In this document: positions 10,401 to 64,000 of the stretch, piece after piece
Layout: every line of letters begins with the position of its first letter
How positions within the stretch are numbered: position 1 is the stretch's first letter
Source: Epithemia pelagica
Taxonomy: Eukaryota > Protista > Bacillariophyta
DNA length: 64,000 bases
Assembly (NCBI GenBank): GCA_946965045.2
Contig: OX337235.1
Location: forward strand, 3,286,001-3,350,000
Direction of reading: 5' to 3'
Position numbers and translations under genes: made by a program
Notes under the pieces: model-generated
Databases searched by the model: none
The model's input: the letters and a program-made list of their open reading frames with translations, nothing else
Told to the model about the DNA's origin: nothing

Positions 10401-11964
10401 CGTGGATGATGAATTGTCAGACTTTTGGCTGATGTACCGTAGTCCTCTGACGGGTCTTGCGTAACAGGAGGCGAAGCAAATAAAGTGTTTACTCCGTCTT
10501 GATCAACTTTTGTAGCCTTGATCTGGCTACCAATGGTCATGTCTGACTGTTCGAACGTTCGTAGGGCAGAAACGAAGGATATATTCCCCTCCTGTTGATA
10601 TCACCTAGTGTACTTGTCCAAAAGATACGAACACCAGGGACGTTAAGGGATTGTAAGGAATGCTGATTGTGGATGGACAGACAGTCCGAAGCTATCTTTT
10701 TTTGCCCTGGTCTTGTGAACGATATTGCGTAATAGAGATGGGAGCAGAAGGTTGGTTGGAGTCTTTGGCGGCGATGGTCACGATTTTTCAGTTCCTGAAA
10801 GGAGATGCGTAGCACATGAACCATTGTAGGTGATGGATTGAACAACAAAAGTGACGGGCAAGCTAGGACGGCTTGCGTTGCTATCACCAAATCAGTGATA
10901 CGCGAAGGAATCCCGCCAAGGACATCATGTGTTTAGCTTTGTCATTAGAGGAGCTACCCACTCTCAACTCGGTGGGAAGTGCAAAAAGTTGCTGGTGGGG
11001 GAAAGAGAGTGTCTTGACAAGAGCGTGACAAGAGTGAAGAGTGTTGTCTGTCCGCACTGCGAAAGGGAAAGAGAGGCGGAAATGTGACAGAAACTTTGTC
11101 TTTTCGCTAGCCCATTATTCGCCATTATTTCCCCTCCATATTGGTGAGGCGGTCAGACATATCCCCAACCCTATCTTTTTTGAATATCGCCCGCCACTCT
11201 GCTCCAGGTAGCTCTAAGTATCTCTAATTGCCAACACCGCTACATCAAGGTCGGCTTGCGTCCAGTGGTTTCTGAATGCTCATAAATTTGGGCAACCCTC
11301 TTGTTCTCGTCTGTCACAAAACCCAAAACCGAGGCAAATGCTTGACCATGACGTGAGGTAAGAACCATGGACGGATCATGCTGGGCTGAATCGCATTTAA
11401 CTTCTCACTACTGCTGCTTATTTCTAATCTTGTCGTCTCCTTTTCTTTCTTCTTACTCATCACTGCTGCAATCTTTCCTTTTGTTCTTGCATGATCCTTT
11501 GGATTTGTCTCATGTTGTACGAGTAGACTGGGTATAAGCTGCTTGTGGTCAAGTGGAATATCCTTCCCTTTCCCCTTCTTGTAATTCTTTTGTCGTTTGA
11601 TTGTTGGCTGGTTGGTTACTTTCATGTTTTCTGTAGGATAGATGATTCACTATTCATAGTATCATTGTCAATCATTTCTCAACGACCGAACATTTTGTTG
11701 TTTTTGCTTCAAGTAGATGGCTCCATCTTGCTCTTGCCACTTGCCACACCCTACTTTCCAACTATCAGCTCCTAGAGCTAGAGTCAAACAGCGAATGATT
11801 CAATTTGTAGCTGTACAAGCGTGTAAGAGCTGCTCTGTCGTGTGTTCATGGTGAAACTGAGGGTCATTGACGTGCTCAAAACAGAAAACTGATGTACTAC
11901 ACGAATACAGAAGGCACTAAACTCGGCTGGCACTTGAGTTCTATTTCTAGTTAATAAAGAAAAG

Positions 11965-12748
11965 TGTTAGAATTCTCACCGTCTATGGTGGTTAGATTCT
12001 ACATCTCATCGATTCCCCATGTCACATAGCCTCGTGCTATCGCATCATGCCCTCTAGCTTCGAGCTATGTTTCCTAGCTTCGCGCTATATCGACCTATAT
12101 TTCTTCGCAAATCATGAAAAGTGAGAATAGATTGACGAACTCACTCTCAAGACTAAATTGGGTCGTGCGGTATTACAACGGACGTAAATTTGGCCGTTGC
12201 TCGGACACTGTACTAACGCCCTAAGCGTACGCGCCCGAAATCATCGAGCGCGCCCAAGCGACATCCGAGCGCTATCGGCATCTATCCGATCCAACGGTCT
12301 AAGTATCCCAAGCACGACACACGATCACGCGAGACCATATTTCCATTCCCACAATCTCCAAATTGTCAACAAGCTGCGCGCCATGAAAACAACTATGCCA
12401 ACCCAAAGCAAGAGCTGTTGACCCTGTATATGTTATCCGCCCACATATACATGTCATATACATCACATGAATCAACTCCAACTATTCCAAACCTGTTGCC
12501 GCCAAGAACCTATGATACATGACCCTTGGCAGGACCGAACATTTCACGTAGACCTATCGTAGTAATCAACACACAATCTAACAAATATCACCATTTATCA
12601 CATCCTCTTTTGTGTCCCGACTATCCTTCTGATAGACTTCGACTTGCTTGCTTCTCTGACCCTGAGAAGCTTGTATCGGTTGGTGACCTACCTGATTGTC
12701 TGCTCTACCGAGCATCAATGTCCCTACGATTCAGAAAGAATTGTAACA
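11965..12748 (+). repeat. 5' LTR (784 bp)
   Basis: TGTTAGAATTC...ATTGTAACA; no difference seen by eye from 19567-20350. Confidence 0.97.
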
Positions 12749-12762
12749 GATTAACAGTCTCA
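12749..12762 (+). promoter_or_regulatory. Putative primer-binding site complementary to a tRNA-Asn(GUU) anticodon arm (half-tRNA type)
   Basis: GATTAACAGTCTCA directly abuts the LTR; its reverse complement TGAGA-CTGTTAA-TC reads as anticodon stem, GTT loop and positions 39-40. Confidence 0.6.
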
Positions 12763-12820
12763 AAGCTTATTTCCTTGTGGTTTCATGGATACTAACGAGA
12801 TTATCACTCCTGTATGACAG

Positions 12821-13564
12821 ATCTATCGAGCCAACCTGCATCCCGGGCAGCCCGATACCCTGGTGCAGCAGGAACTGGTGCCGACGCCGAAGGCAGCCAA
12901 CACATCGGTCAACATCTCCGTCGACAGTTCCAACAGCAACCCATTCGAGACTCCAACCCAGCCTCACGCTCCGATCCCTGCGCCGTTGCTTCGGCCCCCG
13001 AGTCCGCCTCGTCGGCTCGTCCCTTCTCGATCCCGTCGTACCACCCGGTTGATTGCTGATCATATCAAGTACTTCCGCCAACCAACTTGTTCGACCTTCG
13101 ATCCCGAGATCATCCGTGGGGAGACCCAGATCGAACGCCAGTTCCAATCGGTGACCCACATCGTCGACCAAGAAGACATTGACCGTCTGAACGACCAACT
13201 TCACCGCTCTCCGAGGCGTCGCCTCATCTTTGCCGCCCTCTCGGGCAACCCCATCCGTACTGTCCACCTCCGCTTCCTAACCTTCGAGCGCCCAACTGGA
13301 TACTACAATACCATCTACGTCGTGAACGCGACGACTTGCCCTCTGCCTCCTAACGTTGTACGCCTAGATAACTACGTTGCCTACATCCACGAGGTCCATA
13401 CCATCGAGGACCATCGTGCAACTATCTACCCTTTGCGTACCGAGGTCGAGAACCACCTGGCTGAAGGTGATACCCCTTCTTCTGTTGCTTGTGCTGCCCC
13501 ATCTGAGCCTGGAAGCGACTCTGATCATTCGGAAGAGGGTGAGGATTCAGAGACCGAAGCTTAA
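12821..13564 (+). CDS. Accessory ORF inside the retrotransposon, unknown function (ATG-less, probably a spliced 3' exon; 247 codons plus stop)
   Basis: Frame open from 12818 to TAA 13562-13564 with no Met. Marked C-ending codon bias (ATC, TTC, AAC, TAC, CAC, GAC). Preceded by TACTAAC (12790-12796) and CAG (12818-12820). Confidence 0.7.
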   Translation: MYRANLHPGQPDTLVQQELVPTPKAANTSVNISVDSSNSNPFETPTQPHAPIPAPLLRPPSPPRRLVPSRSRRTTRLIADHIKYFRQPTCSTFDPEIIRGETQIERQFQSVTHIVDQEDIDRLNDQLHRSPRRRLIFAALSGNPIRTVHLRFLTFERPTGYYNTIYVVNATTCPLPPNVVRLDNYVAYIHEVHTIEDHRATIYPLRTEVENHLAEGDTPSSVACAAPSEPGSDSDHSEEGEDSETEA

Positions 13565-13884
13565 TTACTCATAGTTAACTCCCGTCCTCTCAAAACCTTT
13601 CCAAGACTTAAACTCAACGCACATCCGGGTACCCTTGGTCGCACAACACGCCACACATTCCCGTCAAATCGCGAAAATTCGGCGAAAATTTGTTGAAACT
13701 CGGCGAAAATTTGTCGAAATCAACGGAAATTTCCAGGAGTCGCACATCACAACACACATCCGGGTATTACATACGTGGTACATACGTGGCACACGTGGTA
13801 CATCCGGGTTCACATCACATCACACATTAAATAAACCACATCACACCGCACATTAAATAAACATCGAACCAACCAAATAACACC

Positions 13885-16800
13885 ATGGATCCTCAATCAC
13901 CCAAGACACCTACGACTCCTAAGGGAGAAGATAACCAAGACAATGTCTCGGACACAGACCTATTCGACCACATCATATTTACTGTCTGCCAATTCTTTAC
14001 CAAAGAAAGGGCTGACTACTTAATGAAATGGATGAAATACCATGGTTTTGAGAACATTACCCATGTTATCTCGTATATGCAAACTAATACCGAGGAATCC
14101 ATGAAGGAACTGACACAATACAAGGTCAACAAACAGACACATGATCTACAAGGCCCCACAAGACAGCAGATCAAGCTCTTGGCTTATTGGGCCACATACA
14201 AGACCAATGAAATTCAAGACGAGCTATCCAATAGCGACTGGATGAACCTAACGAGGAAAGAATTCAACACTTGGAGGATCAACACAGATTTCTCTAAGGG
14301 ACCACCTAGCCAAGTCCCAGTCTCGCCAATGAAGTCACCGTCATCTGTGAAATCTGTCAGCACAGTTACTGCCGCATCCCAATCTCAACAAGACCTTACA
14401 GCATTCAGAAAGGGAACTAAGCGCGACGCAACTGCATATGAGGTATTCAAGGATGAACGATACTACGATTCATTCTGGCGTGTATTCAAGACTACAGCTA
14501 AGGCTCAAGGCCTATCCAACGTTCTGAATTTCAAATACACACCACCCCATGATGATGAGTATGCCGAAGAACTTTTTCAAGAGCAACAAGTATTTCTTTA
14601 CTCCGTTCTTGTCCGTATCATTCAGACTGACCAAGGTCGAGCCTATGTACGTGAACATGAACATGATGAAGATGCGCGTGCCGTATTGCAGAAGTTACAC
14701 TCTTTGCATACCGAATCCGACCTAGCAAAGCGAGAAGTCCTCCGCTTAACCAACTACATTTCCAATCTACGTCTTGACGACACATGGCGCGGAACAACAC
14801 GTCAATTTCTTCTACACTTTCAAGAGCAGCTACGTTTGCTAGACAATTTAGTGACATTGTCTGATCGCATCCCTGATCATACCAGGATGACCTTCCTCAT
14901 GCAAGCTGTAGAAAAGGTACCTGATCTCCGCCGAGTCAAGATCTTGGATAATGTGGTGAACACCAAATCCGGTGCAAAATCCCTTTGCTATCAATCATAC
15001 TTCCGTCTCCTTCTAGACGCAGCTTATGACCATGATCAAGCAACCCAGTCATCTGTTCATAGTCGCCGTCGACATGTCAAACAACATGAATCACTATATG
15101 GCCAAGATACAGATGCTGACATAACCTCACAAGATGATATGGAGTATCATGTCCACAACACCAAAGCGACATCTGAATCTCCATCCTCTTCGTCCAAGGT
15201 TAGTCTACCGCGTGACCTATGGTTCAAACTTTCTGAAGAAGATCGCAAGTTGATCATTGAATATAACAAGATGATTCAAGCACCTTCATCAACAACACCG
15301 AGGACAGTGCAAACACATGCCCTCGACATTGATCCGGAACCTGATCCTGATCCCAATCAAGTTGTATCTGATGACGACTCACCTGGCGTAGTCACTGAGC
15401 ATTCAGATGATTCAGATCCGGTTACACAATTTATCAACCAAGCCATGACGACTGATATCAATCACCCGGCAACTGACCTGACTAGTGTTCTTTCTAACGC
15501 CAAGTCCAAGACGAGCAAGAAGGTTACTTTCAAAGCCAACATGCATAAACAAGCAGGACATGTTCCACGCTATCTGTTTTCCAGGAAATCTACTTTACCA
15601 GGGAATCAATTGATTGACCGTGGTGCTAATGGAGGACTTGCTGGTTCTGACATGCGCATCCTTTCTAAGACTGGCCGCCATATCACTATTGTGGGTATTG
15701 ATAACCATGAACTTACTGGACTTCCTGTCGTCACATGTGCCGCAAAGTTTGAGACCAATGATGGACCTATTGTCGGCATCTTCAATGAATATGCTTATTA
15801 TGGGAAGGGCTTATCTATCCATGCTCCTGGTCAATTCGAGCATTTCGGACTTGCTGTTGATGAACGATCTGTTAAAGTTGATGGTAAACAACGCATCACT
15901 ACACTTGATGGTCGTGCCATACCCCTTCACATCAAGGATGGGTTAGCCTACATCCACTCCTTGGGTATCCCCAGCGACGATGACATGGATACCTTACCTC
16001 AGATCATCTTCACGTCACCCGACACATGGGATCCTGGTGTTCTGGACCATTCGTATTCTCCCACACCCTCTGACAATGATCCTGATTGGAAACACGTCAA
16101 GACTGATGGTAGTATGTCGAACCACCCATATGACAACTATGGGGAGTACACTGATCGTGTTGTTTGTAACCTCAATCTCCTTTTGGATCTCCCATATGAT
16201 CATGGACCTGACGACGCACCCTTCTTTTCTATCTATGCTGACGCAGAAGGTAATGATCCTACACTTCATGCCTCTGTCCACCGTCGTTACCAGGAAGCGT
16301 ATGACTGGAAGAAGTTCCGTCCATTCTTTGGTTGGCAATCTGAAGATGTTATTGCCGATACGTTCAAGCACACTACACGTAATGGTAGCATTACTTTTGA
16401 CCACGACACCCTCAAGAAACATTTCAAGGCTCGCAATCCGGTCCTTAATATACCTCGACGCCATGAACCCGTTGCTACTGACTCGGTTTTCTCCGACACC
16501 CCTGCTGTTGACCATGGCGGTAAAGTCGCACAAATCTTTGTTGGTCGAGATACTCTGGTTACTGATATCTATGGGATCAAGTCAACCAAACAGTTTGTCA
16601 ATACTCTTCAGGACAACATCCGGTTTCGTGGTGCCATGGAGACTCTTATCAGTGATGGTGGTTCATCTCTCATCTCTCAAAAGGTTAAAGACATTCTTCG
16701 CACTTTGCTTATTGGGGAGTATCGATCCGAACCTTATCATCAACACCAGAATAAGGCTGAAAACCGTTACCAGACCGTTAAACGTATGACCAACGCTCTC

Positions 16801-19572
16801 ATGAATGCCACTGGTTGCCCTGCCAACACCTGGCTTCTTTGCCTTGAGTATGTCTGTGACTTATTGAACCATACGTCATCACCCACCCACTCCGGTCGCA
16901 CTCCTCTTGAGGCTCTCTCCGGACGCCCACCCGACATTACTCATCTCTTGTTCTTTCCTTTCTGGGATGAGGTTTACTATCGTGTCGACCCCACTGAACC
17001 CAATTCCGGTTCATATCCATCTTCTTCTGATGAGCAACTTGGCCACTGGGTTGGTTTTGCTCACAACGTTGGTGATTCTTTTACTTGGAAGATTCTCACC
17101 CAGGATAACCAGATCATCTACCGTTCTGCCGTTCGCCGTGTTGAATCCACTACACCTAACCTACGTGTGGATCGACCTTCAGGGGAGGATTCGTCTGACA
17201 AGGATGACAATGATAAGCAAGCTGACACTGTCTTCATTCGCAGTGATAGTGAAGATCCATCCAAACCAATGCCCACGATCGATTTTGACGACATGATAGG
17301 ACGCACATTCCTATGCGACACAGAAGAAAATGGGGAGCGACACCGTGCACGTGTCATCAAACGAGTCATTGATCTTAATGAAGAAGCAACGAAACAGGAA
17401 GAACGTGTCAAGTATATCTACCGAAAGACAAATTCTGATGTTGATGAGATGATATCCTATAATCAACTCATGGAGTATATCGAACGAGATAACCAAGCTC
17501 AAACCTCTGGAGATAATCTTTTCAGGTTCAGGGACGTCATTGCCCATCAAGGCCCACTGAACACAACTGATCCAGATTACAAGGGGAGCAAATATAATTT
17601 GCTTGTTGATTGGGAAACTGGGGAGACTACCTATGAACCTTTATCACTCATCGCCAATGATGATCCGATCACTGTAGCAATTTATGGAAAGAAACATGAT
17701 TTACTCAACGAACCTGGATGGAAGCATTTGAAACGTTATGTCAAAACAAGCAAACGTCTCATTCGAGCAGCCAAACAGTCAAGGATTAAACAAGTTCACC
17801 ATTCCGTCAAGTATAAGTTTGGATTCCAAGTACCACGCAATTATGAGGAAGCTGTCACTCTTGATAAACAACATGGCAACACAAAGTGGCAAGATGCAAC
17901 AGAATTAGAATTGTCACAGATCCAGTCCTACAAGACATTCAAGGATTTTGGGAAAGCCATCTTCATTAAAGGGAAAGTATCCAATGCACCTGAAGGATAT
18001 CATAAGATACGTGTACATCTTGTCTTTGACGTAAAACATGATGGACGACATAAAGCAAGACTTGTCGCAGATGGACATCTCACGAAAGAACCTGTTGAGA
18101 CAATCTATTCAGGTGTTGTTTCCATTCGCAACCTCCGCATTGCCTTATTCCTGGGTACTTTGAATGACTTGGAAATATGGGGAGCAGATATTGGAAACGC
18201 ATATCTGGAAGCCTTGACAGGGGAGAAACTTTTCATTGTCGCAGGACCTGAATTCAAGGAATTAGAAGGTCACATCCTGATTATATACAAGGCACTTTAT
18301 GGATTGAAGTCATCAGGCGCACGCTGGCATGATGTCTTATTCGATGTTTTGACAGACATGGGATTTTCACCAAGCAAAGCAGATCCGGATATCTGGATGA
18401 GGAAGGCACCTGGAGAAGACTGTTACGAATACATTGCCGTATACGTTGATGACTTAGCCATTATTTCTACTGATCCTGGGAATATCTGCAAGATCCTGAA
18501 GGAGAAATACAACTTCAAACTCAAAGGAGATGGACCTATTGATTTCCACTTGGGATGTTGTTACACCAAGGATTCTGATGGAACATTAGTAGCAGATCCA
18601 AGACGCTACATTGGTAAGATGATGGACACTTTCGAACGAATCTTCAAGGAGAAACCCAAGAAAGCCAAAACACCTCTTATTGGTGGAGACCATCCTGAAT
18701 TGGACGATTCTGAGCTCCTTGATGAAGAAGGTACTAACCATTTCCAAACTCTGATTGGACAACTTCAATGGGTGATCACTATTGGTCGTTTCGACGTCTT
18801 CACCGCTACAATGACGCTATCACGCTTTCGTGCTGCTCCGAGGAAAGGACATCTTGATAGAGCCAAGCGTATCTATGGATACCTTGCACATCTCCCAGAA
18901 GGCGCAATCAGATTTAGGATTGGAGAGCCTGATTATTCAAGTCTTCCTACCCAAGAATTTGATTGGACTCGCACTGTCTATTCGAATGCAAGTGAACGTA
19001 TTCCTGAAGACTGCCCAACACCTCTTGGCCGCTATGTTACTACAACTCATTATGTTGATGCCAATCTCATGCATGACATAGTCACTGGTAAATCCGTCAC
19101 TGCTGTTCTACATTTGTTGAACGGAACACCTATTGACTGGTACAGCAAGAGACAGAGCACAGTGGAAACTGCTACCTATGGATCCGAGTTCGTGGCTGCA
19201 AGGACAGCAATAGATCAGATTACAGAATTACGACATTCTCTCCGCTACCTTGGAGTACCTATCCGAGAGCGAAGTTACATGTACGGAGATAACAGATCTG
19301 TTGTGCTCAATGCAACCGTTCCTCATTCCATACTATCCAAGAGACACCATCTTCTGTCATACCACCGAGTTCGTGAAGCCATCGCAGCAAAGTATGTTGC
19401 ATTCTACTGGAAAGATGGAAAGACCAACCCCGCCGATATCCTTAGCAAACATTGGGATTTCGTATCTATCTGGCCCATGCTCAAGCCATTGTTGTTTTGG
19501 AAAGGAGAAGTTCAAGACCTCAACAAATCCAATGATGACAAGGCTGAAACGACGAGTTGTGGGGAGTGTTAG
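13885..19572 (+). CDS. Copia gag-pol polyprotein (1895 aa): gag, aspartic protease, integrase, chromo-like domain, RT, RNase H
   Basis: Protease LIDRGANGG; integrase VATDSVFS...ISDGG...SEPYHQHQNKAE; RT KARLVADGH, YGLKSSG, YVDDL; RNase H YVDAN, ETATYGSEF, GDN, NPADILSK. The stop lies 6 nt inside the 3' LTR. Confidence 0.97.
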   Translation: MDPQSPKTPTTPKGEDNQDNVSDTDLFDHIIFTVCQFFTKERADYLMKWMKYHGFENITHVISYMQTNTEESMKELTQYKVNKQTHDLQGPTRQQIKLLAYWATYKTNEIQDELSNSDWMNLTRKEFNTWRINTDFSKGPPSQVPVSPMKSPSSVKSVSTVTAASQSQQDLTAFRKGTKRDATAYEVFKDERYYDSFWRVFKTTAKAQGLSNVLNFKYTPPHDDEYAEELFQEQQVFLYSVLVRIIQTDQGRAYVREHEHDEDARAVLQKLHSLHTESDLAKREVLRLTNYISNLRLDDTWRGTTRQFLLHFQEQLRLLDNLVTLSDRIPDHTRMTFLMQAVEKVPDLRRVKILDNVVNTKSGAKSLCYQSYFRLLLDAAYDHDQATQSSVHSRRRHVKQHESLYGQDTDADITSQDDMEYHVHNTKATSESPSSSSKVSLPRDLWFKLSEEDRKLIIEYNKMIQAPSSTTPRTVQTHALDIDPEPDPDPNQVVSDDDSPGVVTEHSDDSDPVTQFINQAMTTDINHPATDLTSVLSNAKSKTSKKVTFKANMHKQAGHVPRYLFSRKSTLPGNQLIDRGANGGLAGSDMRILSKTGRHITIVGIDNHELTGLPVVTCAAKFETNDGPIVGIFNEYAYYGKGLSIHAPGQFEHFGLAVDERSVKVDGKQRITTLDGRAIPLHIKDGLAYIHSLGIPSDDDMDTLPQIIFTSPDTWDPGVLDHSYSPTPSDNDPDWKHVKTDGSMSNHPYDNYGEYTDRVVCNLNLLLDLPYDHGPDDAPFFSIYADAEGNDPTLHASVHRRYQEAYDWKKFRPFFGWQSEDVIADTFKHTTRNGSITFDHDTLKKHFKARNPVLNIPRRHEPVATDSVFSDTPAVDHGGKVAQIFVGRDTLVTDIYGIKSTKQFVNTLQDNIRFRGAMETLISDGGSSLISQKVKDILRTLLIGEYRSEPYHQHQNKAENRYQTVKRMTNALMNATGCPANTWLLCLEYVCDLLNHTSSPTHSGRTPLEALSGRPPDITHLLFFPFWDEVYYRVDPTEPNSGSYPSSSDEQLGHWVGFAHNVGDSFTWKILTQDNQIIYRSAVRRVESTTPNLRVDRPSGEDSSDKDDNDKQADTVFIRSDSEDPSKPMPTIDFDDMIGRTFLCDTEENGERHRARVIKRVIDLNEEATKQEERVKYIYRKTNSDVDEMISYNQLMEYIERDNQAQTSGDNLFRFRDVIAHQGPLNTTDPDYKGSKYNLLVDWETGETTYEPLSLIANDDPITVAIYGKKHDLLNEPGWKHLKRYVKTSKRLIRAAKQSRIKQVHHSVKYKFGFQVPRNYEEAVTLDKQHGNTKWQDATELELSQIQSYKTFKDFGKAIFIKGKVSNAPEGYHKIRVHLVFDVKHDGRHKARLVADGHLTKEPVETIYSGVVSIRNLRIALFLGTLNDLEIWGADIGNAYLEALTGEKLFIVAGPEFKELEGHILIIYKALYGLKSSGARWHDVLFDVLTDMGFSPSKADPDIWMRKAPGEDCYEYIAVYVDDLAIISTDPGNICKILKEKYNFKLKGDGPIDFHLGCCYTKDSDGTLVADPRRYIGKMMDTFERIFKEKPKKAKTPLIGGDHPELDDSELLDEEGTNHFQTLIGQLQWVITIGRFDVFTATMTLSRFRAAPRKGHLDRAKRIYGYLAHLPEGAIRFRIGEPDYSSLPTQEFDWTRTVYSNASERIPEDCPTPLGRYVTTTHYVDANLMHDIVTGKSVTAVLHLLNGTPIDWYSKRQSTVETATYGSEFVAARTAIDQITELRHSLRYLGVPIRERSYMYGDNRSVVLNATVPHSILSKRHHLLSYHRVREAIAAKYVAFYWKDGKTNPADILSKHWDFVSIWPMLKPLLFWKGEVQDLNKSNDDKAETTSCGEC
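19556..19566 (+). promoter_or_regulatory. Short polypurine tract
   Basis: GTTGTGGGGAG immediately 5' of the 3' LTR. Confidence 0.7.
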
Positions 19573-20350
19573 AATTCTCACCGTCTATGGTGGTTAGATT
19601 CTACATCTCATCGATTCCCCATGTCACATAGCCTCGTGCTATCGCATCATGCCCTCTAGCTTCGAGCTATGTTTCCTAGCTTCGCGCTATATCGACCTAT
19701 ATTTCTTCGCAAATCATGAAAAGTGAGAATAGATTGACGAACTCACTCTCAAGACTAAATTGGGTCGTGCGGTATTACAACGGACGTAAATTTGGCCGTT
19801 GCTCGGACACTGTACTAACGCCCTAAGCGTACGCGCCCGAAATCATCGAGCGCGCCCAAGCGACATCCGAGCGCTATCGGCATCTATCCGATCCAACGGT
19901 CTAAGTATCCCAAGCACGACACACGATCACGCGAGACCATATTTCCATTCCCACAATCTCCAAATTGTCAACAAGCTGCGCGCCATGAAAACAACTATGC
20001 CAACCCAAAGCAAGAGCTGTTGACCCTGTATATGTTATCCGCCCACATATACATGTCATATACATCACATGAATCAACTCCAACTATTCCAAACCTGTTG
20101 CCGCCAAGAACCTATGATACATGACCCTTGGCAGGACCGAACATTTCACGTAGACCTATCGTAGTAATCAACACACAATCTAACAAATATCACCATTTAT
20201 CACATCCTCTTTTGTGTCCCGACTATCCTTCTGATAGACTTCGACTTGCTTGCTTCTCTGACCCTGAGAAGCTTGTATCGGTTGGTGACCTACCTGATTG
20301 TCTGCTCTACCGAGCATCAATGTCCCTACGATTCAGAAAGAATTGTAACA
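19567..20350 (+). repeat. 3' LTR (784 bp)
   Basis: Copy of 11965-12748, followed by the TSD AAAAG. Confidence 0.97.
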
Positions 20351-20935
20351 AAAAGGAGGTCTATAGTCTGTGGATAAATGCAATGGAAGATTTGGGTATC
20401 ATTTCGACAGAAATAAACAATGGCAAGTAATGAGCTGCTGAGCCAGAGACACAGCAGATGAGCAGACTCTCGTCCCATGAGCAGAGCAAGCAAAAGTGAC
20501 AAGTGTGAGTGAGCATGAGCAATGTAATTGTCATGGCAATCCTCAATGGATCAAGCTCACCTGGAATGTCATTGATACGATGTGCTTTGGCAAGAGAAAA
20601 GGATTGTGTGCTTGTCCGGCATTATGAATTATGAAACAACCAACCGTCATCCACGCAGGGCCGCTTGCTGGCAGTTGGAGAGCTGGCAAAGCCACCCCAT
20701 TTGAGAGCAAGCTCTCCCTAGCACGTGTCCACGAAACGCGACCGAGTTTGGTCTGGCCGCCTCACCAATATGGAGGGGAAATAATGGCGAATCTGCGGGG
20801 TTCTAGTGACCACACGATCGGAATGCTTTTCGATTTTCAAAATATCCCGTGAAAATTTCAAGGAGAGTGCAAGAGCAAAAAGTCTTTGGAGGCTTAACAA
20901 GAAATTTTATCATTGTTCGTAGTTCGTGCGTAATA

Positions 20936-23597: not shown

Positions 23598-26500
23598 CTA
23601 TGGGTTGTCACGTAAACGCTGGGCCCATATTTGTACAGCTCGCGTGACGGCACGAGCCTTGAGCATCATTTCGTCGTATTCGTCCTGCTTGTCGCTCAAG
23701 ACGGTAATGGCCCCTCCTGCTCCAACGTTCACGCTCCATCCATACCGATCACAATCACAACTGCGATTCTCCTCTTTATGCTCGATGACTCCTTCCCGTG
23801 AAGGACATGATGAATGGGACTTACCGTCTTCGTCCCAAGCGGGTGTCAAAACTGCTGTCCGAATAACCTTGTTCATATCAATAGCACCATTGACACTAAT
23901 ATATCCTAGGGCGCCAGAGTAGGGGCCTCGAGGGGCACCTTCTTCCAAGTCATGCAATAAGGCCATGGTTCGCACTTTGGGGGCACCCGTCATGCTTCCT
24001 CCTGGAAAGCAAGCGGTCAAGACGTCAACCGTGGAGTCACTCTCTTCCCGCTCATTTTTGTCGTCAATGTCCAATGCAAATGTTCCTCGAATCGTAGAGA
24101 CCATTTGATGCACTGTTGCGTACGTTTCAATATCCATAAGCTTGGCAACATGGACGGATCCAACTTGACAGACACGACTCAGATCGTTCCGCAACAAATC
24201 CACAATCATGAGATTTTCGGCTCGGTCCTTTTCCGAACAGTGCAAGGCCTTGGCTCGTTCGTGGTCAAGTTTGGCAAAACGCTCCTGTGCAAGCGCACTC
24301 GCATTGTCGGGAGCCACAATGCGAGCTACGGTACCCTTGATGGGTTTTGCTTCCACTTGAAATTCTTGTTTGGACCACTGAGCACCAGCATCCATATTGT
24401 CGCTTCTCGCCATGGGTACAACCGAGATAAATCGTTCCGGAGACGAGCAGCAAATGGACAAGGCAGAGCCAGTACTCGGCGATCCATTGTCGTTGTCAGC
24501 ATTGCTGTTCCAGTCCAAAAATGCCGAAAAAGGAGCCGGATTTTGCTGTCGAAGTACATGGTACAGGTCCAGTGCACTGCTGGTCGTCTGGGACTCTGTT
24601 TGTGCTGGACGACTTGTCCCTGTAGATGAATCCACTTTTACAGTGCCTTCCAACTGGTTTGTGAGGCATAATTCGTAGGATTCTCCATCGTAAATGTGTT
24701 TCATACACATTTCAAAATTGTCATAATATCGTTCCCGTGATCGCTTTGGGACAAACGTGAGAATCTCATCATCGTTCGGTTCCTTGTCGTGTGTCAGTGT
24801 CTCACGCATTGGTGTTCCGCTGTCATTCACCAAATTTGTAGGGGAATGGTCTTGCCGATCCGATCGAGATTCAACCCAGTGCTGCATACGAGCTGATGTT
24901 TCCTGCATCCACTGGATCATTTCACCTTCTCCACGAGTTGAATCGTGTTCCTCATCCTCGGTGCCCGGATGTGAGACGACTACGACACCCACCAAATACC
25001 ACTCTTGCGTTTCATGATGATAGACAAACGACTGATCGGCAAACCCAAAGGCGGCCGTTGGAATTTGCCGATCCGGCGTAATGGGAGGTTTCGTTGGGTT
25101 GGCTGTGAGAGTGTCGGGGTTAGTGTCTCCTGGAGTGGTATTCTCCATGTCGTCATGCATGGTTGGAATCGAGCCATGCTCCTGAGACGCCCACAGTTGT
25201 TCGGTAATGTGACGAACTTCGTATCCCAAATATCCGACATGACCTCCTCGATAGGCAAAGGGCAATTTCGTTTGGACCTGTGATGGCGACAGTGGTTGGA
25301 CGTTCCAGGACCAACGACCCGGTTGTAAAGGAGGAGAGTGGTTCTCCGTCTCGCGCGTATCGTGTACTGGTTCGGATTCCGGATCTTCCCTGGCAACCGC
25401 CTCGACCCAGTGGACCTCTTGGGTGGGATGACAATGCTGCGATTGCAAGTACTCCACAATGTCCTGATCTGGATCGTGTCGATAGGCCACACATCCCATT
25501 GTGGCAGTTTGTTCGCAGTGGTTGGGACGGGGATTCCCCTCGTTTGGAGGTTGCTGCTGCGGCGGAGCGGCAGGGTCCAATGCCGGGGGATGAGTGCAGT
25601 GTTCGGGTTGGTCGTCATCCTTCTCCTTGTAGGGTTGCCACCACCATTCATGAATGCCCCGCAACTGCTTTGGTTTTTCCACACCCCAGTATTCCACTCG
25701 ACGTTGTCGTGGACCAAAGTGTCCCAAAATACTAATGGTCGTCGTCGTGGAGGCCTTTGTCTCGTGTTGCGTGACATCGACTGGATCGTCCTTCTTGTCC
25801 TTGTCCGTGTAGGAGGCTTCATCCAGCCAAAAGTAATACCTCGCATCCCTCTTGTCGTTGTTGTTGTCCTTGTGCTTGGCATGAGAGTTGTCCACCATTA
25901 TTATATCATTCATGACATGTTGGGGACGCAACCAGTGATTGGTACCCAAGGACACCACCTTGTGGACATAGACTTGGTATCGAGGAGACGGAGCGGTGCG
26001 ATTATTCTGTGGTTCTGGTGGGTTGGTCGTGGTGGTCGAGTTGTTGTTGTTGGTGGTGGTGGTCGGTGACAGAGTCGGTGGAGGATGCGCTTGGACTCGT
26101 TGTCTGTTTCTGACTTGTTGTTGTTGTTGTCGTTGTTGTTTGTAGTCGTGACAAATGTGACAAAATCGTTCCAACAGGGCCTTGCCCTGCGGTTGGGATC
26201 CAATGGATTCGGGATGAAATTGGACTCCATAATGAGGATACTGGACATGTTGCAGGGCCATGACCACAGGAGTCGTATTGTCGTCGTCCTCCCAAGTGTC
26301 CGAGGCCGCAAAGGCTGTCGGAACAATGGGCAAATCCGCAGTACTTCCACTACCATGGGAGGTGGGCCAAACCACTTGCAGGGAATGATACCGCGTGACA
26401 TTGTAACTTGGAGGTGGTGGTACGAAACATGTCTCATTCCAGGATCCTGGAAGAGAAGGAAACAAGGAGGGTGCCACGCAGTGTGCTTGTGTTCGTGGCG

Positions 26501-27542
26501 TGGCGTCCCTGTCATTCCAACTAGTACTGGTCGTCGGAAACTCGACGGGATGGACTTGTCCATGGCGGGGTTGGGGTGCGGGGACACAGTCGGCCCCATA
26601 CACGACCCCCATGATTTGATGACCCAAACACACACCCAAAATGGGCAATTGGGGATTGTGAACCATGGCCGAGTGGGCCAAGTGACACATGGTATCGTGG
26701 GCATGTCCTGGACCAGGTGACACGACAATGCCATCCCAATCGTCATTGTCGTTTGATAGTAATTGTAGCACGTCGGTCCAGTGCGTCGCACAATCGGCGG
26801 CCAGGACGGTCGGAGGACGCGTGCAGACTTGTCCCAACAAATCCACCAAATTGTACGTAAAGGAATCGTAATGATCAATCACCAACAAGTTCAAGTCCAA
26901 CGTGTCGTCGTCCGTGCTCGTGTTGTTGTTAGTGTTGGTGGTGGCGGCGGAGAGGGTCGTATCGGCATGGTTGTTGTGGTTGTGGTTGTGGTTGTCGTCG
27001 TCTCGAGCAGTGTGAGTAGGGATCGACCAGACTGTAGGACGAACAGGAGTACTGGCGGTGGTTGCTATGACACTACTGGTGGTTGTTGCTGTGGTGGTGT
27101 GATTGTAGAATGGAGGGTCCACTCCAAATGTCGTTGTTGTCGTCGTCGTTTGCTGCAACGACCAACCACGACCAACACCATGGCGACGACCGTCGTCATT
27201 TCGATCGTCACTCATGGTTGTTGTTGGCGTTTGGTGGTGGTGGCGATTCTTATTCCACCTGGGGTGGTGCTGAAAGGACAACCAAGCGGATTGGGTCCAG
27301 GAGTAACAGGTAGGAATCCATGTCGTAGCAATGAGTCGAACGAGCAACCAAAACGGAGGAACATGATATCGTTGTCGTCGTAAGAGTAGACCCGGCCGTC
27401 GGATGGTACATGTCAGGATCCTCCTCCTGGTTGTCGTTGTCGTCGTTTGTCTTGCACTGATTGTTGTCGTTGGACTGCGACAATGATACCCACTCCTTGT
27501 CCTTGTATCATGACTCGTTGCCGCCGCCGCCGACGACGACAT
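23598..27542 (-). CDS. pabAB: Bifunctional aminodeoxychorismate synthase (PabA GATase + PabB), folate/pABA pathway (1314 aa)
   Basis: IDHYDSFTYNL, GVCLGHQ and GVQFHPES (class I GATase triad); GGHVGYLGYE, SSPERF, KPIKGT, KDRAENLMIVDLLRNDL and FPGGSMTGAPK. Confidence 0.93.
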   Translation of the reverse strand: MSSSAAAATSHDTRTRSGYHCRSPTTTISARQTTTTTTRRRILTCTIRRPGLLLRRQRYHVPPFWLLVRLIATTWIPTCYSWTQSAWLSFQHHPRWNKNRHHHQTPTTTMSDDRNDDGRRHGVGRGWSLQQTTTTTTTFGVDPPFYNHTTTATTTSSVIATTASTPVRPTVWSIPTHTARDDDNHNHNHNNHADTTLSAATTNTNNNTSTDDDTLDLNLLVIDHYDSFTYNLVDLLGQVCTRPPTVLAADCATHWTDVLQLLSNDNDDWDGIVVSPGPGHAHDTMCHLAHSAMVHNPQLPILGVCLGHQIMGVVYGADCVPAPQPRHGQVHPVEFPTTSTSWNDRDATPRTQAHCVAPSLFPSLPGSWNETCFVPPPPSYNVTRYHSLQVVWPTSHGSGSTADLPIVPTAFAASDTWEDDDNTTPVVMALQHVQYPHYGVQFHPESIGSQPQGKALLERFCHICHDYKQQRQQQQQVRNRQRVQAHPPPTLSPTTTTNNNNSTTTTNPPEPQNNRTAPSPRYQVYVHKVVSLGTNHWLRPQHVMNDIIMVDNSHAKHKDNNNDKRDARYYFWLDEASYTDKDKKDDPVDVTQHETKASTTTTISILGHFGPRQRRVEYWGVEKPKQLRGIHEWWWQPYKEKDDDQPEHCTHPPALDPAAPPQQQPPNEGNPRPNHCEQTATMGCVAYRHDPDQDIVEYLQSQHCHPTQEVHWVEAVAREDPESEPVHDTRETENHSPPLQPGRWSWNVQPLSPSQVQTKLPFAYRGGHVGYLGYEVRHITEQLWASQEHGSIPTMHDDMENTTPGDTNPDTLTANPTKPPITPDRQIPTAAFGFADQSFVYHHETQEWYLVGVVVVSHPGTEDEEHDSTRGEGEMIQWMQETSARMQHWVESRSDRQDHSPTNLVNDSGTPMRETLTHDKEPNDDEILTFVPKRSRERYYDNFEMCMKHIYDGESYELCLTNQLEGTVKVDSSTGTSRPAQTESQTTSSALDLYHVLRQQNPAPFSAFLDWNSNADNDNGSPSTGSALSICCSSPERFISVVPMARSDNMDAGAQWSKQEFQVEAKPIKGTVARIVAPDNASALAQERFAKLDHERAKALHCSEKDRAENLMIVDLLRNDLSRVCQVGSVHVAKLMDIETYATVHQMVSTIRGTFALDIDDKNEREESDSTVDVLTACFPGGSMTGAPKVRTMALLHDLEEGAPRGPYSGALGYISVNGAIDMNKVIRTAVLTPAWDEDGKSHSSCPSREGVIEHKEENRSCDCDRYGWSVNVGAGGAITVLSDKQDEYDEMMLKARAVTRAVQIWAQRLRDNP

Positions 27543-28214
27543 GCTGTCGGAAGCACGTTTCTCTCGTATTGGAACACAAATGAGCCGTGGAAGATGATGG
27601 AACTGTATTGTAGAATATTGTAGAGTGCTCTCGTTGGTCCTTGTCGTGCGTTCACAGTTCTATATCATGATGATCTTTCTCTTGCCATCATCCGACATGT
27701 CCGTACGGAGAGAGAAAAATGGTGTGGGTTCCATCATTGTGTGTCTGTCTGAGGATGGATCTGTGATGGACGTGCGACAAAAGAACCGGAACGTGCGCTT
27801 GGTTCCGTGGTGTTCGTTGTTTCCTAGATGCGACCTTCATTCGCTTTGAGCTCGCTTCTATATTTTAGTGCGACCCATGGTCGCTCGTACACCACGTGGT
27901 GGTGTGAAAGATGTGTGGTCCTCCTCCCAAGATTTCTTGGCAGATCAAGCCGCGCGATCGGCAGCAGTTGTTCATCCGTGGTTTCTCGAGTGGCTCGTCA
28001 TCACCGTCGTCTGTCGTCCTTGTTTTTCTCTTCTCTCTGCCTCTCTTGCTTGTGTTGGCTTTATTTCGATTGTGCGCGTGTGGATCCAAGGTCTCGATCT
28101 CTACAGTTTGGTAGAGGACCTTGTGGAGAAAGTAACACACAATCTGCTTCGTTTGGTTCCGGTACCTCACACACACACACACACCAACACACACTTATAT
28201 ATATACCGACCACC

Positions 28215-52591: not shown

Positions 52592-53180
52592 TTGCTTGCT
52601 GGTTGGTTTGTTTGTGGCGCAGTAATCGAACGACAAGACGAAACAAAAGAGAAGAGGTGTCCCCCTCGATGAAAAGGTGCTCCAGAAGAAATAATGCGCG
52701 CCAGAGATTTTAATGGTCCCCCGGCGCTTCGTCCAAGACCAAGCGTGCCCAACAAGGTCACATAACAGAGGTGTGACGTCGCCGATCCGCGAGCGCGAGC
52801 GGGTGGAGACCAGGTAATGGCATCCCTGCGAGAGATTTATTGTTGATGGCCCATCACCCACCAACCATGTCATGCAGGAATCTCCAACAACAAAAAATGG
52901 AATTGCAACACTCTTGGTGTTACTCAATTCCTTTGTGTTTGCAGATCGTCGCCTTTGCTTTTATATACCCGCAATAGACAACTACGAATTATTGGATAAC
53001 GTTGTGGACAAGAGGACTCGTCTCGAAATCGGATTCTGTTCCCTTTCCGTCGCATTCTTGCAAGTGAGGAATCATATACTTTTGTGATCACCACGAGAAT
53101 CTCTGTATCAGAAAGCGTACAACCAAAGCATCGGTTTCATTCCTCCCCACAAAGAAGAAGAAGACGAACCCTTTTCTATC

Positions 53181-56100
53181 ATGGACCACGAGTCAGTGGG
53201 TCGGTCCCAACAAGATTCATCCGCGGAAGAACAGACACCGTTGTTGTCCTTGTCATCCTCCGTTCCCGGTCGTTCCAATCCTTCCTTGTTACAAAGGAAC
53301 AACGACAGTTCTTGGAATGGAACTCAGCTGATTCCTCCCCTCCACCATGCAACTACAAATCCTTCCGGTCTAGAGGGCACAACAACAACAACAACAGTTG
53401 GTGATGCGAATACGCTGGTACCCTTGGAAGGCTACCTTTATCATTCGTGGAGAGAAGCAATTCACACAAACACGAAGGAACCTTACAACAACAAGAGTCT
53501 TGTGCAAGACGAGGACGATTTAGAGCCTGGCGGCGGTCGTCGTCGTCGACCACGTCTCCGTCCTCGTTCTCCCTCCACCCAGCAGTCCTTCGTCTCGTTT
53601 TGCTGGTCGAGTAGTTGTTCCTGGTGCTGGTCGCATTCGCAACAAGCCAGTCGTGTCTTGATTTATGCTGCCATCAATCTGTTGCTGGCCGTACCCGGCT
53701 TGTATGGGTATGCGGCGGTCATTTTCAATCATGCCGTCTTTCGTCCCTACACCAATGCCTTGGCCAAATTGGTCTTGTGGTCCAGTTTGGTCCATCAAGC
53801 TGGATTCCTCTGCTGTTCCAGTTTGAGTGGCTTTGCCATTGGAACGGTCCAAGATGCCGGATTGGTCTTTTTGTCCCGCATGAGTCATGACATTGCCACG
53901 CAAATGACGCTCCGGTACCAACGCGATGACTCCTACTTTGTCCATGCGCTGGAACCACAAAGTCTCTCGACGAACGACACGAATGATAGCAGCAGCAGTA
54001 GCGTCATACTGGATCAAGCCATTGTTTCGACCACCGTGGTTCTCTTGTCCTTGAGTACGGCCTTGTTGGGTGTTTGTTTGGTCTTGATGGGACATTTTCG
54101 ACTCGCCCATGGCATTGTTTCCTACTTGCCCATGCCCGTGGTGGGAGGCTATCTGGCCTTTATTGGATACTTTTGTGTTCAGGCCGGTGTCGCCCTGGCC
54201 ATTTCCACCCCGCTGGTCACCTTGCGCGATTGGGTGACGCAAGTCTTGTTCCGGACCGATCATTTGCTACTGGCACTGCCCGCTTGTGTCGCAGGATTGG
54301 TCTTGACCTGGGTGGCCCGAACAGGACATGCCACGGGGCAGGCCAGTCTCTTGCCGGCCTGCATGGTTGCCATTCCCGCCCTCTTTTATGTCATTGTCTT
54401 TGTTCATTATCGTTGGACGACTCACGACACGGACAAGGAGTCTTCTTCCTTTTTGGATACGGCCCGCACTCATGGTTGGGTCGGACCCGTGGCACCTCCC
54501 ACACCCGTGTCCGATTTGGTCCAATTGATTCATTGGCAATGGATTGATTGGTCCATGATTTCGCACATTGGTGGAACCTGGGTGGGTATGGTCTTGGTCG
54601 TCTCCTTTGCCTCGTGTCTCGATGTAGCGGCCATTGCCATGGATATGGGACGTCCGCTCGATACCAATCGCGAATTGCGGACCGTTGGAATTTGCAATGG
54701 TACGTACAAAAGTGGCGACAGTCCCGAAACGAGTACCACAAAACAAGAGCGATTTCCAAACTTACACCATGAATTATTTCTCCTTGCCGTGCGTCCCATT
54801 TCTGCGTTTGAAAACCGAACCATTACAGTCATGTCCGGTCTGACGGTTGGCTTTACCGGATCGTACATTTTTTCCCAAACCATTTTCACCTACCGGACCG
54901 GTGTTCATACCCGGTGGATTGGTATTTGTATCATGGCCCTGTACCTCTTTTTTGTCCTCTCTCCCCTGAATTTGTTGGAATGGTCACCCCTCTTTTTCTT
55001 GGGCAGTACCTTGATTTTTATCGGCTACGATCTCTTGTACGAATGGTTGATTGAAATTCGAGACCGCATCTTGTGGTTTGAGTACGCGCTCATTTGGGGC
55101 ACCTTTGTGGCCATTCAAATCGTGGGGGTTGATGTCGGAATTTTGGTAGGTGTCGTGTCGGCCATGGTGGAACAGGCCTTGTCCACGGCGCAAACCACCA
55201 CGGTCCTGTGTGTCCCCAAACGATCCAAGGCGGTCTGGAGTCGCGAGGAAATGCAACTCTTGCATCGACATGTCTATCAACAAAATGACAGTACACGTCC
55301 CATTGTCACGTTGGAATTGATGGGACCAGTCTTTTTTGGCTCCGCCCTTTATCTCATGGAACGACTCTTGCACGAAGTGGGCCTTTCGACGACCCTCGAC
55401 CATGGCAACAACCACAACAACACCAAGGAAAGGATACAGAGCAACGGAAATGACACAAGGACGGACAATGGGCCATTCAAGGGATCCCCCGCCATTCCCA
55501 ATAGTCCGCGGACGTCGCCGTACTTTGTGGCGCTCAACAAACGACCGTCCTTGTTTCATCAAGACGTTGCGTCGACCGTCTCCCACGGCCCCAACCATCA
55601 CACGACCACTAGTGGCGGCTCTATTCCCCGGCGCAGTCCTCCCAAATATTGCGTCTTGGATTTGACGCAAGTGTCCAACATGGATGCCTCGTCGGCTCGT
55701 TCGTGCTTTGTTCAGTTTGCCAAATTGTGCAGTCAAGAGGGTATTACGGTCTGTGCCTCGGGTGCTACACCCCGCATTGCCTGGATGCTACGGACACATC
55801 AAGCCGCGTATCCACTCCAAGAGGAAGAAGAACGAATCAAGGCGACCTTGTGGCACGTGACAAAAACATGCTCGACCACCACCTCCTCCAAATCCTTGCA
55901 ATCCCCGACGTTCCAACACCCCAAAGTGGACAAGATTCTCCTATTTCATACCACCCATGAAGCCTTGGAGTTTTGTGAAGCAAGTTTGATTCATGAATTT
56001 CAAAGTCAATCCACGTCGTTGTCCCATACTAGTTCATCCGTCATGTCGGCGTCCCTAGGTTCGGCCAACAAGGACACGACACTCTCTTCCATTTTGGGAC

Positions 56101-56792
56101 GATTTCTCTTGGCCGGTTCCATTGCCACGGGCTACTCCCCCGAGGAGCTGCACATTATTTTACAACGACTCGACAGTCAACGATATCATTCGGATTTGGA
56201 GTACCAGGCGGGCGAGAAAATCATGGCCCAAGATACCCGACCGGAATCCTTTTATGTCGTGCTGGAAGGAGCAGTGGCCAGTGGTGCCGCCACGCCCGAA
56301 TCCGTTCAACGACATCGACAACCCATTGTGTCGGGAGCCGGGCCCGTGCACTTTACGCAAAGTTCGAGTTTTACCAATTTGCTGGATGCGCTACCACTGG
56401 CATTTGGAGGACGGGGACAGGACGTGGCGGAATTCACAGCGACGACGACGACGACTGCAACCCCGACCGGAATACCGCCACCACGCCAACCATTTCATCC
56501 CCATGCAGGCAGCTCAGGTGGTGGTAGTAGTGGCGGTGCGTACCATCCTCCAGTCGTGGTGGGTACTGTTTGGCCCCTAGGAGGTGTCTTTGGATTTACC
56601 GATTTGTGGTTGGATCGACCTCGTACCTTTGGAGCCTTTGCCACGCAAGATCCGACCAGAGTCGCACGCATTACAAGATCGCACATGAATCTACTCCAAC
56701 AAGAAGATGCTCAACTGTTTGGCTTGCTCCATCAAGTGTTGTTGCGCGCGAGTATCTTGGATTTGGCCAATTGCACCTGCCATGGAGTGTAG
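53181..56792 (+). CDS. SulP/SLC26-family transporter with STAS and cyclic-nucleotide-binding-like domains; probable 129-bp intron 54700-54828 (1160 aa spliced)
   Basis: GTVQDAG, PMPVVGGYLA, DTNRELRTVGICN|VMSG and GSYIFSQT motifs; STAS LELMGPVFFGS and CVLDLTQVSNMDASS; C-terminal ESFYVVLEG..GGVFGFTD. Confidence 0.88.
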   Translation: MDHESVGRSQQDSSAEEQTPLLSLSSSVPGRSNPSLLQRNNDSSWNGTQLIPPLHHATTNPSGLEGTTTTTTVGDANTLVPLEGYLYHSWREAIHTNTKEPYNNKSLVQDEDDLEPGGGRRRRPRLRPRSPSTQQSFVSFCWSSSCSWCWSHSQQASRVLIYAAINLLLAVPGLYGYAAVIFNHAVFRPYTNALAKLVLWSSLVHQAGFLCCSSLSGFAIGTVQDAGLVFLSRMSHDIATQMTLRYQRDDSYFVHALEPQSLSTNDTNDSSSSSVILDQAIVSTTVVLLSLSTALLGVCLVLMGHFRLAHGIVSYLPMPVVGGYLAFIGYFCVQAGVALAISTPLVTLRDWVTQVLFRTDHLLLALPACVAGLVLTWVARTGHATGQASLLPACMVAIPALFYVIVFVHYRWTTHDTDKESSSFLDTARTHGWVGPVAPPTPVSDLVQLIHWQWIDWSMISHIGGTWVGMVLVVSFASCLDVAAIAMDMGRPLDTNRELRTVGICNGTYKSGDSPETSTTKQERFPNLHHELFLLAVRPISAFENRTITVMSGLTVGFTGSYIFSQTIFTYRTGVHTRWIGICIMALYLFFVLSPLNLLEWSPLFFLGSTLIFIGYDLLYEWLIEIRDRILWFEYALIWGTFVAIQIVGVDVGILVGVVSAMVEQALSTAQTTTVLCVPKRSKAVWSREEMQLLHRHVYQQNDSTRPIVTLELMGPVFFGSALYLMERLLHEVGLSTTLDHGNNHNNTKERIQSNGNDTRTDNGPFKGSPAIPNSPRTSPYFVALNKRPSLFHQDVASTVSHGPNHHTTTSGGSIPRRSPPKYCVLDLTQVSNMDASSARSCFVQFAKLCSQEGITVCASGATPRIAWMLRTHQAAYPLQEEEERIKATLWHVTKTCSTTTSSKSLQSPTFQHPKVDKILLFHTTHEALEFCEASLIHEFQSQSTSLSHTSSSVMSASLGSANKDTTLSSILGRFLLAGSIATGYSPEELHIILQRLDSQRYHSDLEYQAGEKIMAQDTRPESFYVVLEGAVASGAATPESVQRHRQPIVSGAGPVHFTQSSSFTNLLDALPLAFGGRGQDVAEFTATTTTTATPTGIPPPRQPFHPHAGSSGGGSSGGAYHPPVVVGTVWPLGGVFGFTDLWLDRPRTFGAFATQDPTRVARITRSHMNLLQQEDAQLFGLLHQVLLRASILDLANCTCHGV

Positions 56793-57693
56793 CAACCTTC
56801 CAAAGAACACCAGAACGAAAGAAAAACCTCATCAGGATACCGGACAAAAATGGTTTCTTGGCATGTGTATTTTTTGTGTCAATGAAGGGAGCTTATTGCA
56901 ACTCCAGTATGTCCTCCAAGTCCAACAAAACAGTTAGTTGTTCATCGAGAACAATGGTTCCCAGAATTGAGGGAAGGGATGTGTAACTTGCCGAAAGAAG
57001 TTGAATGTCAGATGCGCGAACAAGGGTTCTTATATCTCTTGTTTCATGATGAGACAGTTTCACAGCCATGGTTGAGCTGCTGGTAATGATCTGGAACTTG
57101 GTGGGCTTGTGGTCTGGAATATTGGCTTGTGGCCCGGGCTATTATTTGAATCCTTGAGCGAGCAACATATGCACGAACAATCTTCAGGGTTTCTGCCATG
57201 CAAGTCTCCGCTTCAGGGTCGAGGAGCTGTTGAAAAGGCTCTGGATACGGTGTCAGCATCATTGTCTTTGGTTCTCCTTTGTCTGGGCCCAGCGCACAAT
57301 ACCTCCACCAGGAAGTCGTTACCCGAGTTCTTCCGTCACAAAGGTCGTCATGAGATAAGGCAATTGAAGACCACTTTCTTGCTCCATGCACAGTGTTGTT
57401 TGTGTAGCCCGTCATGCCTTTTCGTTGTCATTGTATAGAATGGGCTTGGCTAGTCCCATATAATATGTGTTGCTTGAATCATCCATCCTATGCAAAGAGG
57501 CTGCTTGTTATGAAAAAGGAGCTTTTCTCGAGTACTACTCACAGACTACTGGGCCAATTCACATGTAGTTAGATATATTATGGGTCATGCTGTCATAAAT
57601 GGGTTGGATTCCCTCCGTCTTCTATATCTCAATTGTTCACGTTGCGCGCACATTCCGATACAGCATCAAGTCACAGACACAATCATAGTGGAC

Positions 57694-63929: not shown

Positions 63930-64000
63930 ACTTTTCGATCATGCCGTCTTTCGTCCGTACACCAATCCCTTTGCCAAATTGGTATTGTGGTCCAGTTTGG
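63930..64000 (+). pseudogene. Start of a third, 5'-truncated SulP copy (runs off the window)
   Basis: 63379-64000 repeats 58914-59527, including the same junction into SulP coding sequence. Confidence 0.85.

Follow-up and report, generated by a model that had tools for sequence, protein, structure and literature searches.

An intact copia-type element and its upstream gene

The window, a stretch of 64,000 nt from Epithemia pelagica (contig OX337235.1), contains an intact copia-type element at positions 11965-20350, with gag-pol in a single frame. The 5' LTR (11965..12748, + strand; 784 nt; CpG observed/expected ratio, o/e, of 1.18) has TG..CA ends and is 100% identical to the 3' LTR (19567..20350, +), identical 5-mers flank the LTRs as a target-site duplication (11960..11964, right copy at 20351-20355) and gag-pol is whole, as the original prediction of an intact element had it. 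The gag-pol gene (13885..19572, +; CpG o/e 0.72) encodes 1895 aa from a start in the context ACC-ATG-G. Using Pfam, we detected RVT_2 at residues 1365-1584 (E 1e-24) and, below the cut-off, rve at residues 899-952 (E 0.001). The LTR pair with TG..CA ends, the 5-bp target-site duplication, the RVT_2-type reverse transcriptase and the integrase placed ahead of it are those of a Ty1/copia element. A CCHC knuckle was not found in the gag-pol of the window, which fits the trait of the CoDi elements, where the knuckle is missing outside the CoDi6 families. All the 120 gag-pol relatives among the matches listed are unnamed or "hypothetical", with no named CoDi; gag-pols 44-46% identical to that of the window occur in many other assemblies. 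The segment at 17500-17760, after the integrase, looks by eye like what we take to be a chromodomain, as described for CoDi-A integrases; it had no Pfam or PDB match. A purine-rich tract (19551..19566, +) precedes the 3' LTR.

The primer-binding site (12749..12759, +) abuts the 5' LTR. The same 11-mer occurs 25 times in 78 related metagenome loci retrieved with a gag-protease profile, and several of these loci place a copy at an equal distance before repeated element starts. The site is presumably complementary to the anticodon arm of tRNA-Asn, in which case the element would use half-tRNA priming. The copia element itself sits within an element of 1,285 nt with 42-nt terminal inverted repeats (11117-11158 and 20751-20792), likely a non-autonomous DNA transposon. 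Since the empty site was seen in sequencing runs X1 and X7, the copia insertion is recent or polymorphic.

Between the primer site and gag-pol lies a stop-to-stop frame of 248 codons without Met (12818-13564). The original prediction had described it as a Met-less frame of 247 codons, which holds for the position and, within one codon, for the length. Such a length was reached in 2 of 2000 shuffles of the leader, and 6 of 2000 shuffles of the ORF sequence reached 240 codons. The prediction that the gene is ATG-less did not stand. An ATG in the same phase is located at 12785, ten codons upstream of the open frame, and is severed from it by a TGA at codon 11 (12815..12817, +). Sister proteins start at this ATG: they form a cluster of 145 members, hereafter family A, whose representative has 259 aa and begins at the Met equivalent to 12785. 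Among the 15 members listed of the 145, all 11 that have the N-terminus carry an Arg at codon 11, and one protein found on 11 contigs (P0005) equals the window frame apart from this codon. In addition, position 12815 reads C at full depth in contigs of all four sequencing runs compared there, and a 6,513-nt contig of run X2 links ORF1 to gag. The Arg of the sisters and the C of the four runs thus indicate that the copy in the window carries a CGA-to-TGA change. This change is of the methyl-cytosine deamination type, and an error of reverse transcription or assembly is also possible. Given the Met-starting, Arg-11 sisters and the C reads, we reject a non-ATG start or read-through as a trait of the family. 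What remains true of the "ATG-less" remark is that the ORF1 protein has no internal Met. The mutated base of codon 11 also creates the lone internal ATG of ORF1 (12814, out of frame).

ORF1 is therefore annotated here as a gene of 259 codons (12785..13564, +) whose ATG has a T at -3. The Pro-rich N-terminus, the core and the acidic tail described in the original prediction were all confirmed. Residues 70-100 (12992..13084, +) hold an [ST]PPR motif followed by a basic patch (9 R/K and 1 acidic residue), residues 81-228 form a conserved core of 148 aa (13025..13468, +), and the acidic tail (13469..13561, +) is variable. An ATG-free spacer (13565..13884, +; CpG o/e 1.58) with short tandem repeats at 13671-13862 separates ORF1 from gag-pol. 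The C bias of the third positions of ORF1, also predicted, is present (C3 of 0.41 vs 0.26 in gag-pol) but not strong. GC3 is 0.63 in ORF1 and 0.42 in gag-pol, and because five host frames of the window range from 0.53 to 0.61 and C and T are nearly equal at the four-fold sites of ORF1 (0.34 and 0.32), we consider the bias only moderate.

A profile search added two families of full-length proteins to family A, namely B, of 251 aa (P0027, 39 members), and C, of 259 aa (P0028, 15 members); all three begin with Met. The core aligns across them without gaps, that of the ORF1 described here being 53% identical to B and 48% to C, and identity between families drops to 10-16% in the tail. The ORF1 of family B follows directly on the shared primer site, and the LTR before it is a different one: contig ends of runs X6 and X7 share 12737-12774 and continue with codons matching the first residues of B. 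For family C, we infer a position before gag-pol only from three sister gag-pol clusters that are 73-78% identical to the gag-pol of the window and whose contigs match in length. ORF1 diverges faster than gag-protease (48-53% vs 73-78% identity). Among the 14 differences listed between young copies, 10 are replacing and 4 silent, a depth at which selection is neither shown nor excluded. Broken copies appear to be common, as 4 of the 15 listed members of family A are C-terminal fragments and one further member has an altered tail; an 80-aa C-terminal fragment (P0004) present on 11 contigs suggests that other copies may be broken too. Overall, ORF1 is conserved in three Met-initiated families, which agrees with the predicted accessory gene and supports, at the level of sequence, that a high-copy copia family carries it as a genuine gene.

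AUG depletion and the expression of gag-pol

The 1,097 nt that separate the ATG of ORF1 from that of gag (12788-13884) contain a single ATG in any frame, due to the codon-11 mutation, against 12.8 expected, and none of 500 dinucleotide shuffles was as low. By contrast, the reverse triplet CAT was not depleted in the same interval. Synonymous sites in ORF1 avoid out-of-frame ATG. In NAY codons (Asp, Asn, His and Tyr) followed by G, the ratio of C to T was 7:0 in ORF1, whereas gag-pol gave 27:102 (Fisher p 4e-5). The same ratio was 10:0, 9:0 and 11:0 in the leader ORFs of three related loci (L001, L002 and L014, respectively) vs 9:90, 6:59 and 4:85 in their own gag-pols; pooled over the four elements, leader ORFs gave 37:0 and gag-pols 46:336. 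Internal Met was absent from 39 of 41 ORF1 proteins. The depletion extends to related leaders: all 16 examined contain 0-2 ATG, and for 15 of these no more than 5 of 500 shuffles reached a count as low.

The start contexts follow an order as well. In the window element, L001 and L002, the -3 position is T at the ORF1 starts and A at the gag starts. A 25-codon upstream ORF (12718..12795, +) with a weak start context overlaps the ORF1 ATG out of frame; its ATG is the sole one between 12522 and 12784, and contigs of runs X2 and X7 cross the region without any difference. In 11 related loci, the last ATG of the LTR lies at least 127 nt before the primer site or is missing from the 400 nt scanned, and these positions bracket the likely start of transcription. 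The layout is that of leaky scanning, with a weak upstream start, a strong downstream start and no other AUG between them.

From these sequence features we propose, as a likely scheme, that ribosomes load near 12520-12600 on an LTR-driven RNA shared by ORF1 and gag-pol. Part of them would begin at the weak AUG of ORF1, and the remaining ones would scan 1.1 kb of AUG-free RNA and start Gag-Pol at the strong AUG. Re-initiation after the 25-codon upstream ORF, which overlaps the ORF1 start, may offer an alternative route to gag. The loss of AUG from ORF1 in all frames would then be the price of its position ahead of gag. If gag-pol were reached by splicing, by re-initiation after ORF1 or from a promoter in the spacer, there would be no need to purge the body of ORF1, so scanning through ORF1 is the simplest reading. 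Long ATG-free leaders without a long ORF also exist, so the purge argues for scanning and not for any role of ORF1. Five such leaders, 0.9-1.4 kb long and devoid of both ATG and long ORFs, were observed among the related loci (L044, L045, L076, L010 and L068); these may be scanning-type leaders without an accessory gene. Another locus, L014, has a 1,738-nt leader with zero ATG and a Pro/Arg-rich frame of 310 codons ahead of gag (L014:1486-2415), with the 11:0 avoidance given above, which makes this frame a candidate for an accessory ORF with a truly non-AUG start.

Upstream ORFs in related elements and known systems

The nearest of the 78 loci, L001 and L002 (48%), each encode a protein of about 200 aa in a separate ATG-initiated ORF that precedes gag (L001:6411-6998 and L002:349-963), and the two ORFs form a second family. 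These two ORFs are 29% identical over 101 residues (E 4e-14), have no Pfam match, and share with ORF1 an acidic and Pro-rich start and the [ST]PPR motif. Homology between them and ORF1 was not significant, as 73 of 196 shuffles reached the score. In a tree built with a quick method (32 rows, L076 left out), the window element, L001 and L002 form one clade (SH-aLRT 100). The [ST]PPR motif, which we take to fit the cyclin-dependent kinase consensus, is kept in all six ORF1s of this clade (families A, A', B and C, L001 and L002). When the 78 related loci were searched in six frames with the ORF1 profile, the best E was 0.23. Among the remaining loci, leaders are short, are long but free of ORFs, or carry unrelated ORFs, and this variety suggests that the slot was probably occupied on more than one occasion. 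Two of the unrelated leader ORFs encode putative proteins, one with a coiled coil and a small beta-domain-like part and weak Pfam hits only (L048:130-468), the other Cys/Trp-rich (L043:701-1129).

The original prediction stated that additional ORFs of such elements typically lie 3' of pol or antisense. This is incomplete, as upstream ORFs are on record, namely ORF0 of Retrosat2, RIRE3 and RIRE8 and the diatom "ORF1". Retrosat2 and the RIRE elements group with gypsy-type elements. The ORF0 of Retrosat2, FRetro3, RIRE3 and RIRE8 in rice is upstream of gag-pol, lineage-restricted and faster evolving, as is ORF1 (PMC3485330). The likeness of the Retrosat2 group to ORF1 is one of position, and these are plant elements with 3-kb LTRs. 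In diatoms, Maumus et al. (2009) looked ahead of the polyprotein ORF of CoDi elements for another ORF, which they denoted ORF1 (PMC2806351). The CoDi elements of that study measure 5.2-8.1 kb and have LTRs of up to 844 nt, dimensions in the range of those of the window element. The sections of that paper dealing with "ORF1" name neither a function nor a translation mechanism; it is likened here by position and may in some cases be gag. Our literature search, with subscription journals mostly outside its scope, found no report of leaky scanning or of a function for an upstream ORF in diatom elements, and in further papers on diatom transposable elements the terms "ORF" and "open reading frame" were absent from the main text.

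Outside diatoms, the closest layout is that of tungro bacilliform virus and badnaviruses, whose small ORFs I and II have weak starts ahead of the polyprotein, like ORF1. In the tungro virus, about 895 nt across ORFs I-II are free of further AUGs, and leaky scanning brings ribosomes to ORF III (PMC3542737). These are plant pararetroviruses in which scanning has been shown, whereas we infer it for the window element, and ORF1 had no Pfam match to their proteins. Accessory ORFs that are not env are also carried by bdelloid LTR retrotransposons, but as third ORFs with esterase or nuclease domains, whereas ORF1 comes first and has no recognised domain (PMC5408684). Upstream extra ORFs in LTR elements, including the diatom "ORF1", are therefore known; the ORF1 protein family and the AUG-purge signature are new. 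Such ORFs have been noted for years without a function or an account of how gag-pol is translated, and the AUG purge with weak-then-strong starts across related elements offers a testable answer on the latter. The family itself is a new one with natural intact and broken copies.

Possible roles of the ORF1 product

We searched ORF1 against Pfam, PHROGs, NCBIfam and the PDB sequences without any significant match. Outside families A-C, nothing was recovered among 1.84 billion representatives except one low-complexity match, no relative was present in the viral, metagenome and prokaryote contigs searched, and no named sequence matched; the gag and protease of the element were likewise absent from the viral contigs. 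AlphaFold2 gave a pLDDT of 34 for whole ORF1 and of 47 for the core, the low-confidence core model consisting of helices followed by four strands. The Foldseek search suggested in the original prediction was run on this model against PDB and BFVD and gave no match at E<=0.001, and VIA-align reached a best Z of 4.4. With a model of this kind, blank structure searches would not by themselves indicate a new fold.

The role that we tentatively favour, at less than an even chance, is that of a trans-acting factor shielding the CpG-rich 5' end of the element from silencing, in the manner of VANC. In all six ORF-bearing elements, gag-pol is CpG-depleted (o/e 0.13-0.72) and the non-coding 5' DNA retains CpG (0.68-1.32). 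Such a depletion of gag-pol was seen in 3 of the 13 ORF-less elements, and the 10 others show little (ratio test p 0.0003); the comparison is post hoc, covers few related elements with borders set by eye, and includes the putative ORFs of L043 and L048. The ratio of the window element, 1.75, is the lowest among ORF bearers and is exceeded by three ORF-less loci. These patterns lean weakly toward anti-silencing. In Phaeodactylum, CoDi elements are targets of CG methylation (10.1101/2021.06.11.447926), and VANC of the Arabidopsis VANDAL elements is a fast-evolving accessory transposon protein accompanied by non-coding tandem repeats, like the ORF1 element (PMC5735166). The tandem repeats of the spacer, the fast evolution of ORF1, the CpG pattern and the methylation in Phaeodactylum together lead us to favour a VANC-like role. 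The ORF1 product may be soluble and nucleic-acid-binding and act in trans, and the basic patch and the core would bind the 5' DNA or RNA of its own family, keeping the promoter active. If it acts in trans, copies whose ORF1 is broken could also remain mobile. Against this, CpG-rich promoters need no protecting protein, and no similarity to VANC or to any DNA-binding family was found. VANDAL elements are plant DNA transposons, and the sequence-specific binding and demethylation of the cognate element that mark VANC would be predictions for ORF1. If ORF1 does counter methylation, it would provide an anti-silencing system in an algal LTR retrotransposon and might serve as a tool to steer epigenetic states family by family.

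Second, as a plausible but lesser possibility, ORF1 may be a particle cofactor, either structural or acting as an RNA chaperone. It would bind the RNA leader or Gag, aid packaging, primer annealing or nuclear return, and offset a Gag without knuckle. The lack of a CCHC motif in gag-pol, the conserved Arg-rich patch of ORF1, its presumed production on the genomic RNA, probably alongside Gag, and a layout shared with the small upstream ORFs of tungro and badnaviruses are all in line with such a cofactor. However, many related elements have no upstream ORF, most CoDi families described in PMC2806351 also do without a knuckle, and ORF1 diverges much faster than Gag.

Rather unlikely as a whole is a broader proposal, namely that diatom-type copia elements repeatedly fill AUG-free leaders with leaky-scanned genes and that ORF1 is the anti-silencing counterpart of VANC, possibly derived from an ADP-ribosyltransferase, keeping its own promoter unmethylated where the host methylates the rest.

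Another effector of the conflict with the host is a little less probable again: a suppressor of small RNAs, a regulator timed to the cell cycle through [ST]PPR, or a factor restricting copy number. Fast evolution around a conserved core and the retention of [ST]PPR throughout the clade would suit an effector of this type, but the motif is short and easily arises in a Pro/Arg-rich sequence, and homology to any described family was not found.

We consider it improbable that ORF1 is a diverged ADP-ribosyltransferase-like fold acquired by the retrotransposon, which would act on nucleic acid or host proteins or bind NAD without catalysis. The ten best family hits in the ESM Atlas all belong to one clan (DUF7587, NarE, Scabin-like and Pertussis_S1), the whole protein scoring 0.84-0.86 and the core 0.88-0.92. 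However, the top core hits share 131-139 features, below the 170 typical of true members, and a third of shuffled proteins also yield a one-clan list. An hhalign comparison with a profile of 46 Scabin-like domains gave a probability of 0.3%, with 78 of 104 shuffles as good, and thus lent no support to this reading; of 4 weak controls of the DUF7587 type, that profile recovered 2. The NarE family was absent from 401 genomes searched, and DUF7587 had 5 weak matches in 400. In terms of the transferase topology, the model has helices at the place of the first strands, families A-C differ from one another at the putative catalytic positions, and no transferase appeared among the matches listed in the structure comparison that reached the Z of 4.4.

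A purely translational function has a slimmer chance still. Here the weak AUG of ORF1 would divert ribosomes and tune the output of Gag-Pol, the protein itself doing little. Weak upstream AUGs do precede a strong gag AUG, young copies give no sign of purifying selection, and unrelated ORFs fill the same slot in other elements. On the other hand, a brake has no need of 259 codons, and a core about 50% identical without gaps next to a tail at 10-16% is a pattern at the level of the protein.

Finally, two options of the original prediction are very unlikely, namely that ORF1 was captured from the host and is carried along by the element, or that it serves transmission as an env-like protein: although the GC3 of ORF1 resembles that of the host frames, neither the 1.84 billion representatives nor the profile search yielded a cellular relative as donor, and the highest 19-residue hydropathy mean of 0.97 (0.89-1.12 across families A-C) leaves no hydrophobic segment for a membrane anchor, no membrane-spanning segment being found in any of the three families.

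Elsewhere in the window, tandem segmental duplications with spacings of about 5.0 kb and 4.5 kb extend over 53088-64000; in them, a transporter-like gene and an unknown gene recur two or three times in partly broken form. Near-identical repeats are also present at 47519/48819 and 22593/22926. On the minus strand, a long gene at 23598-27659 resembles a fused aminodeoxychorismate synthase, and its C-terminal part shares 52-64% identity with bacterial proteins.
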